DNA of 64,000 bases from Ruminococcus sp. (lineage in GTDB: Bacteria; Bacillota; Clostridia; Oscillospirales; Ruminococcaceae): the NCBI GenBank assembly GCA_017521805.1, contig JAFXDK010000073.1, positions 13,410-77,409 on the forward strand, in the 5' to 3' direction. Below are positions 10,698-52,362 of the stretch, one piece after another. The position numbers and the translations under genes were made by a program. The notes under the pieces were generated by a model. That model ran no database searches and was not told the origin of the DNA. It worked only from the letters and a program-made list of their open reading frames with translations. Every line of letters starts with the position of its first letter. Position 1 is the stretch's first letter.

Positions 10698-10726
10698 TTG
10701 ACTTTAAAGCGATAAAGTGTTATAAT
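10698..10726 (+). promoter_or_regulatory. Consensus SigA-type promoter driving the 6S-like RNA
   Basis: TTGACT (10698-10703), 17-nt spacer, TGtTATAAT (extended -10; hexamer 10721-10726). Confidence 0.65.
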
Positions 10727-10732
10727 AATATA

Positions 10733-10903
10733 TAGCTTATTGCTCCACCAATTATACCTTGCCGAAAAGACGAAAGCAGAAAGGAAATTTATCAAGGAAG
10801 AAAAACGCAGTAATGCTGTCGCATTTCAAGTTTTTCTGACGCAGAGAAATTTTCTTTATGCCGAGTATTTGATGGCAAGGTTTAGTTGGGGGAGCAATAG
10901 TAT
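10733..10903 (+). ncRNA. Candidate 6S-like (ssrS-like) rod-shaped ncRNA; alternatively an unusual tyrA leader
   Basis: Hand-folded structure:
- Closing stem 10738-10746 with 10891-10899, plus CCAA/UUGG.
- 8-bp stem 10756-10763 with 10874-10881.
- 17x17-nt central internal loop (10764-10780 and 10857-10873).
- 10-bp stem 10781-10790 with 10847-10856.
- 8-bp stem 10799-10806 with 10830-10837.
- 23-nt apical loop.
The structure begins about 5-7 nt downstream of the predicted TSS of a consensus promoter. No coding signal. Confidence 0.45.
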
Positions 10904-10937
10904 TCAGATTGTCGAAAATACATCATCCCACAAAGTA

Positions 10938-11063
10938 ATGGGATTCTAAAGGGCAAAGCCCTTTAGCAGAGTCCAGAGACAGCGTCTCTGGCAGGGTGTG
11001 GGACAGCGTCCCACATAGCGTTCAAGCGCTCTGCAAGGGGTGAATGCAAGTGAGAGCGTCCCC
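10938..11063 (+). repeat. Multi-hairpin intergenic repeat, copy A (short variant, 126 nt)
   Basis: Shares the 5' part (ATGGGATTCTAAAGGGC...) and the 3' end (...GAGAGCGTCCCC) with copies B and C. It lacks hairpin 4 and about 90 nt of the central part. Confidence 0.9.
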
Positions 11064-11132
11064 TAAAAAATCATTGCATTTTCAACAATCTTATAATATA
11101 CAATACAATATTTTACAAAAGAGGTTTTGAAC

Positions 11133-13648: not shown

Positions 13649-13736
13649 GAGCATACGAAAACCAGTATGTGTGAAATTTTCGTAGGCAAATAAATTAGAG
13701 GTTCCCTTATGTAGTTGTCGAAAAATTATAAATATA

Positions 13737-13965
13737 ATGGGATTCTAAAGGGCGAAGCCCTTTAGCAGAGTCCAGAGACGGAGTCTCTGACTGGGTATGG
13801 GACAGCGTCCCATGCAGAGCGAAGCTCTGCGATGCGTTCAAGCGCTCTGCAAGGGGTTGCCCGAACGTGAGGCAGGATGCTGTTTGAACGTGAGGGTATA
13901 TCGCACTTGGATTTGACTGCGATTGAATTGAAAAGAGGGGACGCTCTGCAAGAGAGAGCGTCCCC
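13737..13965 (+). repeat. Multi-hairpin intergenic repeat, copy B (full 229-nt unit)
   Basis: About 95% identical to copy C by hand alignment (11 mismatches, no indels). It lies between the divergent ABC-F and pectate-lyase promoters. Confidence 0.95.
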
Positions 13966-14116
13966 TTGAAAGAATGTCTGATTTTACCTTTTCTACCCTA
14001 CATTTATTTTACACATACGGAAACCATAAAACAGCCGAATTTTTTCCGTATGATGAATTATCTTTTTAGTTGCGATACAAAAGCATAATATGTCAGCTAC
14101 TCAGTATTATATATCA

Positions 14117-25576: not shown

Positions 25577-25890
25577 AATTTTTCCTCCGTTTCATTTTTC
25601 GGTGGTTTTATTATACCATAAAAATTTTATATAGTCAATATTATTATGAAAATTATATTCAAGATGTTGACTGCGGTTGACAGTTTGTGATGAAATCAGC
25701 CGTTTTTTCGGTGAAATATACGGATTTTTTATGCGGTATGCTGTAAAGTGCACCGCATTTTTTGTGCAGGTATACGAATTTCAGAAAATTTAAAATTTAT
25801 TTCGTCTTTTTGGCTGTCTAAATGCACTTATATATGAAAGCATTAAATATGATCCATAGTGTACAATAATTTGCCAAAGGAGGCTTTACT

Positions 25891-28293: not shown

Positions 28294-28382
28294 TGGCGCA
28301 GCGGGTGGGATTCGAACCCACGTCCCTCAGGGGGCATCATGATTTCGAGTCATGTCCGTTATGACCACTTCGATACCGCTGC
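28294..28382 (-). tRNA. tRNA-Ser (anticodon CGA), CCA encoded
   Basis: Reverse complement: GCAGCGG-TA-...-CATGA-CTCGAAA-TCATG, a long variable arm, then GTGGG-TTCGAAT-CCCAC-CCGCTGC-G-CCA. Type II cloverleaf. Confidence 0.9.
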
Positions 28383-29999: not shown

Positions 30000-30000
30000 A

Positions 30001-30229
30001 ATGGGATTCTAAAGGGTGAAACCCTTTAGCAGAGTCCAGAGACGGCGTCTCTGGCAGGGTATGGGACAGCGTCCCATACAGAGCAAAGCTCTGTGATGCG
30101 TTTAAGCGCTCTGCAAGGGGTTGCCCGAACGTGAGGCAGGATGATGTTTGAACATGAGGGTATATCGCACTTGGATTTGACTGCGATTGAATTGAAAAGA
30201 GGGGACGCTCTGCAAGAGAGAGCGTCCCC
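30001..30229 (+). repeat. Multi-hairpin intergenic repeat, copy C (full 229-nt unit)
   Basis: Begins 2 nt after the GDSL stop codon, in the convergent gap before hisE. 218/229 identical to copy B by hand alignment. Confidence 0.95.
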
Positions 30230-30263
30230 TCAAATTATGCACTAAGTTGATTTTACGACAGAC

Positions 30264-30292
30264 TAAATCCCCCGATTTTTCGGGGGATTCGT
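30264..30292. terminator. Terminator hairpin at the convergent GDSL / his-operon junction
   Basis: 9-bp stem aatcccccg / cgggggatt with a T-rich loop and flanks. Confidence 0.65.
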
Positions 30293-30296
30293 TGTA

Positions 30297-30635
30297 TTAT
30301 GAGTTCTTGTCAACGGTATGGAACTTTTTAAGGTTTCCTATTTTCTCATTACGCTCATCAAGGATTCTTTCAACATCAGTCCATTCAAGTCCCTGATTAA
30401 CACAAAGCACCATGATGTGATAGAGCAGGTCGTTGATTTCGTTCATAAGCTCGTCATTGTCGTTATTTTTAGCGGCAATAACAGTTTCAGTAGCTTCCTC
30501 GCCGATTTTTTTGCAAATTTTGTCTACACCCTTGTCGAAAAGGTAGCAGGTATAAGAATTTTCAGCAGCACATCCGTTATCATACTGCTTTTTTCTCTCC
30601 TTGATTACTTCAAAAATTTCGTGATATACGTTCAT
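30297..30635 (-). CDS. hisE: Phosphoribosyl-ATP pyrophosphatase
   Basis: MazG-like 'SYTCYLF..G.DKI.KK.GEEA.E..IAAKN...E...E..DL.YH..VL'. Last gene of the his operon. Confidence 0.9.
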   Translation of the reverse strand: MNVYHEIFEVIKERKKQYDNGCAAENSYTCYLFDKGVDKICKKIGEEATETVIAAKNNDNDELMNEINDLLYHIMVLCVNQGLEWTDVERILDERNEKIGNLKKFHTVDKNS

Positions 30636-44268: not shown

Positions 44269-45305
44269 TAAAGTTTTTCAACCTCCGCAAGAAGTTCAGA
44301 AACTATTTCCTCCTCCTTGATTTTACGTTGTGTACCGTCTTTTTTAAAGATAACCGCACAGCCGTCGCCGCCTGCAATACCGATATCAGCTTCGCGAGCT
44401 TCTCCGGGGCCATTCACAACACAGCCCATAACCGCAACGGTTATATCTTTTTCGGAATCTGCAAGAGCCGCTTCAACCTTTTTTGCCGTACCGATAAGAT
44501 CAATTCTTGTACGTCCACAGGTTGGACAGCTTACTATAGTAACGCCTTTACGCTTGCCGATACATTTGAGTATATCCTTAGCCGCTGCAATTTCCTTGAC
44601 AGGCTCGTCCGTAAGAGATACGCGGATAGTCTCACCGATGCCGTCGCAGAGAAGTGAGCCGATACCAATTGCGGATTTTATAAGTCCCATGCGCTCTGTA
44701 CCAGCCTCGGTAACTCCAAGATGAAGCGGATAATTGCACTTCTCAGCGGCTAAACGGTATGAAGCCAACATTCTGTTTACATCTGAGGATTTTATAGAAA
44801 TTACAATATCATCAAAATCAAAGCGCTCTAAAAGTGCCGCATGATTCAGCGCACTTTCCACAAGAGCCTCGGGAGTCGGTGAACCATATTTCGCCAGAAG
44901 CTCCTTTTCAAGTGAACCAGAATTTACGCCGATACGGATAGGCAGATTCCTTGAACGGCAAGCGTCTACAACAGCTTTTACTCTGTCAAGTCCGCCGATA
45001 TTTCCGGGATTTATACGGATTTTATCAACACCTGCTGCGGCAGCTTCAATTGCAAGGCGGTAGTCGAAATGAATATCAGCAACAAGAGGAATATTCACAG
45101 CAGATTTTATTGCAGGAATAAGCTTTACAGCCTCCATATCGGGAATTGCCGCACGAACAATCTCACAGCCTGCCTTTTCAAGTTCAACGGTCTGTCTTAC
45201 GCTTCCCTCAATATCGTCTGAACGGACATTGAGCATTGATTGTATGTAGATATGATTTCCGTCAAGAACACAGTTCCCGACTTTTACAGCTTTGACATTT
45301 CTCAT
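44268..45305 (-). CDS. ispG: 4-hydroxy-3-methylbut-2-en-1-yl diphosphate synthase
   Basis: 'VQSM....T.D', 'RINPGNIG' and 'SCPTCGRT'. The stop overlaps the polC ATG by 1 nt. Confidence 0.95.
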   Translation of the reverse strand: MRNVKAVKVGNCVLDGNHIYIQSMLNVRSDDIEGSVRQTVELEKAGCEIVRAAIPDMEAVKLIPAIKSAVNIPLVADIHFDYRLAIEAAAAGVDKIRINPGNIGGLDRVKAVVDACRSRNLPIRIGVNSGSLEKELLAKYGSPTPEALVESALNHAALLERFDFDDIVISIKSSDVNRMLASYRLAAEKCNYPLHLGVTEAGTERMGLIKSAIGIGSLLCDGIGETIRVSLTDEPVKEIAAAKDILKCIGKRKGVTIVSCPTCGRTRIDLIGTAKKVEAALADSEKDITVAVMGCVVNGPGEAREADIGIAGGDGCAVIFKKDGTQRKIKEEEIVSELLAEVEKL

Positions 45306-50966: not shown

Positions 50967-51055
50967 GGAGAGGTATCGAAGCGGTCATAACGAGGCGGTC
51001 TTGAAAACCGTTTGACTTAACGGTCACGTGGGTTCGAATCCCACCCTCTCCGCCA
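50967..51055 (+). tRNA. tRNA-Ser (anticodon TGA), CCA encoded
   Basis: GGAGAGG acceptor stem. Anticodon stem-loop GCGGT-CTTGAAA-ACCGT. Long variable arm. T-arm GTGGG-TTCGAAT-CCCAC. Confidence 0.9.
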
Positions 51056-51084: not shown

Positions 51085-51174
51085 GCGGATTTACCCAAGT
51101 GGTGAAGGGGCTCCCCTGCTAAGGGAGTAGGTCGGGAAACCGGCGCGAGAGTTCAAATCTCTCAATCCGCGCCA
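51085..51174 (+). tRNA. tRNA-Ser (anticodon GCT), CCA encoded
   Basis: GCGGATT acceptor stem. Anticodon stem-loop CTCCC-CTGCTAA-GGGAG. Long variable arm. T-arm GAGAG-TTCAAAT-CTCTC. Confidence 0.9.
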
Positions 51175-52152: not shown

Positions 52153-52181
52153 TTGACAAACAGATGAATATATGATATAAT
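52153..52181 (+). promoter_or_regulatory. Consensus SigA promoter of the cobalamin-riboswitch transcript
   Basis: TTGACA (52153-52158), 17-nt spacer, TGaTATAAT (hexamer 52176-52181). Confidence 0.7.
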
Positions 52182-52187
52182 TTAAAA

Positions 52188-52362
52188 GTAAAAATAAGGG
52201 AAGTCGGGTGAGAATCCCGCGCAGTCACGCTACCGTGTTGCGCCGTATGAGCGCTAAGTCGGGTCGCTTCATTGACTACAGTTTACGAGCGATGAACTGT
52301 AGTTTATTTGTTATGCAAAAATCGCTCTCCGTGTATATTTTTTATACCTCGGAGAGTTTTTT
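52188..52362 (+). promoter_or_regulatory. Cobalamin (B12) riboswitch with terminator expression platform
   Basis: The core 'AAGGGAAGUCGGGUGAGAAUCCCGCGCAGUCACGCUACCGUG' closely matches the conserved cobalamin-riboswitch core (GGGAA..GGUG.GAAUCC..GC.G.C.CGC.AC.GU). A B12-box-like 'AAGUCGGGUCGC' follows. The terminator is ctctccg (52325-52331) with cggagag (52350-52356) plus T6. A candidate antiterminator pairs gagcgat (52287-52293) with atcgctc (52321-52327). The downstream genes are B12-associated. Confidence 0.7.

Follow-up and report, generated by a model that had tools for sequence, protein, structure and literature searches.

Among insertion sequences (IS) that target hairpins, members of the IS1182 family end in the motif xAG(T/G)CTG followed by an A-rich stretch, and direct repeats listed for the family in the ISfinder tables range from 0 to 60 bp. 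A stem-loop, usually a terminator, serves as the target with little primary-sequence specificity, as described for IS1272 and TnSha1 in Staphylococcus (PMC4923244, PMC5678879) and for ISCbo5 and ISBma2 in Clostridium, with terminator hairpins as the targets of ISCbo5 (PMC3098183). On insertion, IS1272 deletes or replaces the stem-loop and does not duplicate it (PMC4923244, PMC5678879), whereas in pathway b of the model of Wan et al. strand joining at its 5' feet leads to duplication of the entire stem-loop (PMC5678879). The terminal parts of these elements are prone to rearrangement, as exemplified by the tandem end duplication described in IS1272L (PMC5678879); two IS1182-family members from IMG/VR, L123 and L127, likewise have one IS end duplicated in tandem, e.g. 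AGAGGCTGTCTAACAAC...AGAGGCTGTCTAACAAC. Non-autonomous elements assigned to IS1182 include the MITEs partnered with ISMac2 in Methanosarcina acetivorans, which are 160-169 bp long and have TIRs of 25-26 bp (PMC3852290). Another kind of short, non-coding, dispersed intergenic repeat is represented by BOX of the Gram-positive Streptococcus pneumoniae and its relatives RUP and SPRITE, built of modules variable in number that form stable stem-loops, with a terminator-like hairpin in SPRITE (PMC3049150, PMC10969869).

The repeats studied here were found in a 64-kb stretch of a Ruminococcus sp. contig, referred to below as the window. They are very probably copies of a MITE of rumen Ruminococcus that has IS1182-type ends, inserts at the foot of a stem-loop and duplicates the whole stem-loop. 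This MITE is previously undescribed and recently active, and it represents a kind of element already known and not a new class of RNA. It resembles hairpin-targeting members of the IS1182 family in its terminal motif followed by an A-rich stretch and in its stem-loop target. Unlike these IS, it carries no transposase and is about 170-290 bp long, compared with 1.5-2 kb; unlike IS1272, it duplicates the whole stem-loop, which corresponds to pathway b. The ISMac2-partner MITEs are similar in being small and non-autonomous, but they are archaeal, their direct repeats are 4 or 0 bp long, and no duplication of stem-loop length is reported for them (PMC3852290).

A search with an nhmmer profile detected exactly three copies in the window. 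The first-pass annotation had placed full units at 13737-13965 and 30001-30229, which are 94% identical over 243 nt, and a shortened unit at 10938-11063; all were recovered, all on the + strand, and gene annotation agrees with the co-directional, divergent and convergent settings proposed for them. The full-length copy, delimited by sequence and by mapping of arms and TIRs, extends over 13711-14001 (+) between the divergent ABC-F and dockerin/CBM77 pectate lyase genes. It begins with the left TIR GTAGTTGTCGAAAAA (13711-13725) in a left arm reaching to 13738, continues with the core (13739-13965), and closes at about 14001 with the right arm and a degenerate right TIR, CCTTTTCTACCCTAC. The copy at 30000-30264 (+), defined by sequence and empty sites, has neither left arm nor left TIR and begins directly 3' of the stop codon of a GDSL lipase gene that is convergent with hisE. 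Its core (30003-30229) is followed by the right arm, closed by the right TIR TTTTACGACAGACT (30251-30264), and then by the target stem-loop AAATCCCCCGATTTTTCGGGGGATT (30265-30289, no strand assigned). The remaining copy, at 10905-11091 (+), is a deletion derivative located between the co-directional RNase_T exonuclease gene and tyrA. Sequence, TIR mapping and nhmmer delimit it from the left TIR CAGATTGTCGAAAAT (10905-10919) to the right TIR ATTTTCAACAATCT (~11078-11091), and comparison with contig L043 narrows its left boundary to 10903-10905; its core (10940-11063) is devoid of hairpin 4 and of most of the central module. No clean target duplication adjoins the ends of the 13711-14001 and 10905-11091 copies, and the flanks of the three copies are mutually unrelated.

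Arms and TIRs were mapped by aligning the flanks of all copies. The conserved core of 125-230 nt lies between arms of 25-37 nt that end in TIRs, giving a total length of 168-291 bp, and no ORF of at least 80 aa was found inside the elements. The left TIR is CAG(T/G)CTGTCGAAAAA (CAG(T/G)YTGTCGAWAAA in the flank alignment), and its right-hand counterpart is TTTTTCGACAGACTG. The left arm, which precedes GGGATTCTAAAGGG, measures 27 or 34-35 nt, and the right arm, which follows GAGCGTCCCCT, measures 32-38 nt in most copies and less in degenerate ones. The right TIR is present in ~21 of the 28 copies with a mapped 3' end; the left one is degenerate in many copies (3-4 mismatches in 14). Across the searched DNA, the 14-mer AGTCTGTCGAAAAA (≤ 2 mismatches) is practically confined to the neighbourhood of cores, the three matches distant from any core all being weak, with 2 mismatches. 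These ends bear on the initial view that the unit has no terminal inverted repeats and does not fit a classical MITE. TIR-ended arms add ~27-35 nt on the left of the unit and ~26-37 nt on its right, and with these arms included it has TIRs, target-site duplications and empty sites; the inference went astray because the boundaries had been drawn too tightly, around the conserved core only. For screening, the lesson is that a verdict of "no TIR" reached from a conserved core can mislead where arms have diverged.

Three orthologous empty sites were recovered, and in two of them the target stem-loop (~21 bp) is found once in the empty state and twice in the filled state. The comparison of empty L050 with filled L007 resolved the element ends to the base. 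L050 reads ATATC-AGGGGACGTTTTTCGTCCCCT-GAATTTTTG, and L007 reads ATATC-AGGGGACGTTTTTCGTCCCCT-CTGATTGACGATAAAC...TTTTTCGACTGACTG-AGGGGACGTTTTTCGTCCCCT-GAATTTTTG, so that the element, bounded by CTGATTGACG...CGACTGACTG, has the 21-mer AGGGGACGTTTTTCGTCCCCT on either side. The two loci, from two different MAGs, are orthologous, with CotH proteins 94% identical. The Logan contig L051 likewise contains the insertion, and its CotH protein matches that of the empty MAG exactly, so closely related strains are polymorphic for the insertion. In the second pair, with NUDIX proteins 98% identical, a target of ~20-21 bp at the gene end is single in empty L104 and doubled in filled L013. The target is clearly a single stem-loop in L050, and weakly so in L104.

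The third empty site corresponds to the hisE locus of the window. The element is missing from all ten hisE loci retrieved, on contigs that encode an identical HisE protein. In L037 and L039 just 36 nt separate the lipase and hisE genes, and the sequence after the lipase stop codon reads ...TAAAA(A)TC-AAATCCCCCGATTTTCGGGGGATT. The window copy is positioned between TAAAAT and AAATCCCCCG, the 5' foot of the terminator hairpin, and the empty sequence of L037 and L039 continues exactly at AAATCCCCCG. The stem-loop at 30265-30289, which the element adjoins at its 5' foot, is predicted to terminate both convergent genes, lipase and hisE. Both the left arm and the left copy of the hairpin are missing here. 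Short-type left arms end in ATAAAAT, and the hisE-site target has AATAAAAT just 5' of the hairpin; a secondary deletion through ATAAAAT/AATAAAAT microhomology would give the observed junction.

Duplicated flank hairpins were observed in seven copies, with lengths of ~31 bp in L003, 21 bp in L007, ~20 bp in L012, ~20-21 bp in L013, 23 bp in L020, ~24 bp in L022 and 39 bp in L024. The length of the duplication (19-39 bp) thus tracks the size of the hairpin and not a fixed stagger. Inspection by eye placed a GC-rich hairpin next to the right end in ~16 of 21 copies and next to most left ends. The purB neighbour of L003 was considered as a third test of duplication, and was uninformative because the nearest contigs differ in the downstream gene and terminator. 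The elements in L018, L025 and L014 have different hairpins on their left and right sides, which is best explained by recombination between copies.

Beyond the window, at least 30 further copies are present in two Ruminococcus MAGs and one metagenome. A scan of the genome collection gave 15 pattern matches on both strands, 7 and 8 in two Ruminococcus MAGs, and a metagenome scan disclosed 10 short contigs carrying the element; BLAST within the MAG and metagenome loci added partial copies at locus ends. Assemblies carrying the element include GCA_045594905.1 (JAZNZK01) and CALGTV01. The genes next to the copies are unrelated to each other, and both orientations of the element relative to them occur. 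Contig L013 carries two copies ~2.4 kb apart in opposite orientation, so the shared orientation seen in the window, for which the chance expectation is 1 in 4, does not hold as a rule of the family. The whole element had no match among PLSDB plasmids and INPHARED phages, and scans of viral contigs with core or arm patterns returned nothing, or chance matches in coding DNA. Metagenome and MAG contigs L041, L044, L017, L021 and L008 terminate within the element. Assemblies of Ruminococcus bins thus repeatedly break at it, and counts of the element taken from MAGs are too low.

The proposal of a dispersed, non-coding, multi-hairpin intergenic repeat family is borne out by these copies, and each hairpin reported in the core, the two copies of GAACGTGAGG and the 11-bp 3' hairpin were found in the sequence as described. 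In the 13711-14001 copy, the 5' domain of the core (13739-13858, +) comprises hairpins 1-4, each with a 7-bp stem and a 3-nt loop. In the predicted fold they are enclosed by an invariant GCAGAG/CUCUGC helix, which does not vary among copies and hence carries no covariation information. The long central module (13859-13934, +) consists of GAACGTGAGG x2 and the ATCGCA/TGCGAT hairpin, and is followed by the 3' hairpin GGGGACGCTCT/AGAGCGTCCCC (13936-13966, -). The core varies by whole modules. Hairpin 1 has a C-G and a T-A version, some copies carry GCGGGG-AG-CCCCGC in place of hairpin 2, and either of hairpins 3 and 4 can be missing. Three states of the central module occur: a 66-nt insert, a 14-bp hairpin GAATTTYMAAACAGTCC-TGT-GGACTGTTTKRAAA, or absence; outside the window, most copies have the 14-bp hairpin in place of the long module, or none. 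Deletions occurred between direct repeats CGCTCTGCAAG, and the central module was lost in this way in L020, L022 and L023. An H-type pseudoknot, GCGCUCU..GGGG / AGAGCG..CCCC, was considered and set aside, the duplicated CGCTCTGCAAG being better read as a deletion-mediating direct repeat.

Modules are also exchanged between copies. From the right half of the element through the downstream gene, L012 and L014 are 99% identical; their left arms and left flanks differ. At the 13711-14001 site in other strains, flanks of ~700 nt are 100% identical and a patch of ~55 nt covering hairpins 2-4 differs, its variants matching those of other copies; the pattern is a sign of recent gene conversion from copy to copy. 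The hairpins inside the element form modules that are swapped among copies by recombination, with pairing maintained by compensatory changes.

Transposition alone does not account for the strongly conserved pairing of the core, and this pairing speaks in favour of regarding the core as a structured small RNA gene, either a dispersed sRNA or a guide or regulatory RNA of the transposase, with a fold under selection and mobility as its vehicle. Across 52 pairs and 15 copies, 99.5% of cells are paired; 8 pairs are altered on both sides, and none of 500 shuffles attains the observed score. The fold is much more stable than that of shuffled sequence (+ strand, z = -6.4; - strand, z = -7.3), and part of the one-sided changes are G-U on the + strand. 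Against this, counts of G-U versus A-C show no strand preference (~3 wobbles on the + strand and 2 on the - strand), entire hairpins are dispensable or interchangeable, and orientation relative to adjacent genes is mixed. Some copies have inverted hairpin tips (TGT -> ACA), which are characteristic of template switching at DNA palindromes; such switching can yield "compensatory" pairs without selection. Scans revealed no promoter-like site within the element and thus no conserved promoter; a candidate in the left arm was rejected, because only 12 nt separate its TTGTCG and TAWAAT hexamers and long-type arms lack a -10 box. The + strand has no U-tract after the hairpins, as originally stated; on the - strand that statement is false, since the 3' hairpin, a 12-13-bp stem, is followed by CTTTTCAATT, a terminator-like match at the level of sequence pattern only. 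At the Rfam gathering score, the element had no match in the window, including the region of the 10905-11091 copy. In E-value mode the best match was Clostridiales-2, with 16.1 bits against a threshold of 58.6, and the Rfam families considered, including HEARO/omega RNA, Clostridiales-2, 6S and T-box, gave only chance-level scores. The exclusion of a tRNA, tmRNA or CRISPR repeat stands. The suggestion of a structured sRNA family holds as regards conserved pairing and lacks a promoter, a fixed gene orientation and strand-specific wobble; an RNA function is not required by the data and we regard it as unlikely.

Two further readings would dispense with a DDE-type MITE. Richness in hairpins, the intergenic location and the common strand of the three window copies would suit a single-strand DNA element of REP/REPIN or IS200/IS605 type moved by a Y1 enzyme (RAYT/TnpA) encoded elsewhere. 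Such elements, however, have neither target duplications nor DDE-type TIRs, both of which are present here and verified at empty sites; moreover, both orientations occur on one contig, and junctions display no conserved 5' tetranucleotide target. The RAYT/Y1 suggestion is contradicted by the duplications and TIRs, which makes this reading highly improbable, and the same features contradict the REP half of the "REP/BOX-like" label. Its BOX half describes the modular hairpin core reasonably well by analogy. The hosts belong to different lineages, and the likeness meant is one of build; the Ruminococcus element is also set apart by TIRs, duplication and target preference defined by empty sites. 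To our knowledge, mobility and a transposase have not been established for BOX in a like manner. Repetition itself, and nothing more, could be cited for relics of a segmental duplication, or for a gene leader or 3' UTR motif, in place of mobile DNA. The flanks are unrelated, the adjacent genes are unrelated and occur in every orientation, and close relatives have precise empty sites. The recent segmental duplication with conserved flanks that the first-pass annotation named as a possible refutation is not what was found, as flanks are unrelated and copies exist outside the window; this reading is scarcely tenable.

The ends of the MITE were compared with those of IS1182-family elements. Reference ends were taken from plasmids (IS1272, ISSau3, an Aerococcus element and ISKpn6) and from ~20 IMG/VR members, and the Pfam signature DDE_Tnp_1_6 / DDE_Tnp_1 was checked for ISKpn6 only. 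The ends read were GAGTCTGGGACATAAA, GAGGCTGGGACATAAA, GGAGTCTGCGCGG, GGGGCTGTCGCAYTAA, GGGCTGTCCCAAAAG, AGGGGCTGTAAAAAAA and GAGGCTGTGACATAAG, among which GAGTCTGGGACATAAA is the end of IS1272; that of ISKpn6 is GGAGTCTGCG. CAG(T/G)CTGTCGAAAAA has in common with them the AGKCTG(TCG) motif and the A-run, a resemblance of short motifs, and the element ends fit the IS1182 consensus. In ISKpn6, the subterminal sequence is unlike the element arms and the GAGTCTG terminus alone is shared. The comparison supports an IS1182-type partner and falls short of proof. No IS1182-type transposase was detected in the ~743 kb of DNA examined, which includes unrelated viral loci, or near any copy, and scans of viral contigs yielded no full-length IS with the TIRs of the element: the 15-nt TIR gave 50 single matches with no inverted partner and no transposase. 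L069 was considered as an IS candidate since it seemed to be flanked by hairpins, and was dismissed for want of a second end. Long target duplications, such as those of the Ruminococcus element, were not found among the full-length IS1182-family elements examined from IMG/VR; in its duplications the element thus departs from the members of the family that have been studied best.

According to the mechanism we propose, the transposase would act in trans and would most probably be one of the DDE enzymes of the IS1182 family. It would link each end of the element to one target strand, the two joints lying at opposite feet of a stem-loop that is in most cases an intrinsic terminator. Filling of the staggered gaps by repair would then place a complete copy of the stem-loop on either side of the element, giving a target-site duplication of ~19-39 bp whose length would be set by the hairpin, with no fixed stagger. 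Both adjacent genes would in this way retain a terminator. We infer that the target takes part in cruciform or hairpin form and that such insertions are neutral. After insertion, hairpin modules would be exchanged between copies via recombination or gene conversion, and arms or modules would be lost via deletions between short direct repeats. The duplication of a whole unit recalls CRISPR spacer integration and casposons by analogy only. Cas1-Cas2 performs strand transfers at both ends of a partly palindromic unit, and gap repair duplicates the whole unit; casposons produce a fixed duplication of 14-15 bp. The Ruminococcus element has neither Cas1 nor a fixed repeat, there is no indication of a Cas1-type enzyme, and the TIRs fit a DDE family. 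A bolder proposal, which we consider doubtful, is that integration is measured by structure, with strand transfers at the feet of an extruded stem-loop, and that the core may be functional and not passive cargo. The core could then act as a structural mimic of the target, as a cis-acting RNA or DNA cofactor of the transposase, or as a portable antisense terminator.

Several other features were noted in the vicinity of the copies. A promoter-like TTGACT-17-TATAAT (10698-10726, +) precedes a rod-like hairpin of ~170 nt (10735-10901, +; MFE -68.4 kcal/mol, z = -8.25) for which Rfam gave no match. In contig L043 the rod is directly followed by GTTTTTTTG and a different gene, and 10698-10903 therefore resembles a self-standing small RNA gene, perhaps one of 6S type. 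The 10905-11091 copy adjoins the 3' foot of this rod, at the place where a U-tract would be expected. The 13711-14001 copy is bracketed, 25 and 12 nt from its ends, by diverged copies of one hairpin at 13652-13686 and 14014-14052, CATACGAAAA...TTTTCGTAGG and CATACGGAAA...TTTCCGTATG, with stems that differ by a compensatory pair; they may represent an old duplication with extra intervening sequence. Directly left of the same copy (13695-13710) is the motif TTAGAGGTTCCCTT(T)AT, which in L015 is situated directly right of the element, and which could be either another small repeat or a favoured target. Similar terminator-like hairpins AAATCAGCCGTTTTTTCGG...ATACGGATTTT occur at 25693-25728, 44988-45023 and 30265-30300, the last being the target of the 30000-30264 copy; their likeness is probably merely that of A/T-flanked GC hairpins. 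Unrelated to the repeat, Rfam at gathering score assigned an AdoCbl riboswitch at 52180-52308 (+; 72.9 bits) and three long-arm tRNA genes at 28297-28382 (-), 50967-51052 (+) and 51085-51171 (+).

The pairs of empty and filled sites provide direct natural evidence of whole-stem-loop duplication, which had earlier only been drawn as a possible pathway (PMC5678879). With ~240 bp, the element is a small substrate for testing the recognition of DNA structure, rather than sequence, by a transposase. If its partner places strand transfers at both feet of an extruded stem-loop, the element would be a naturally occurring, tractable example of DNA integration measured purely by structure. For the genomes of rumen Ruminococcus, it adds a defined mobile repeat that breaks assemblies and drives rearrangement and gene conversion between loci.
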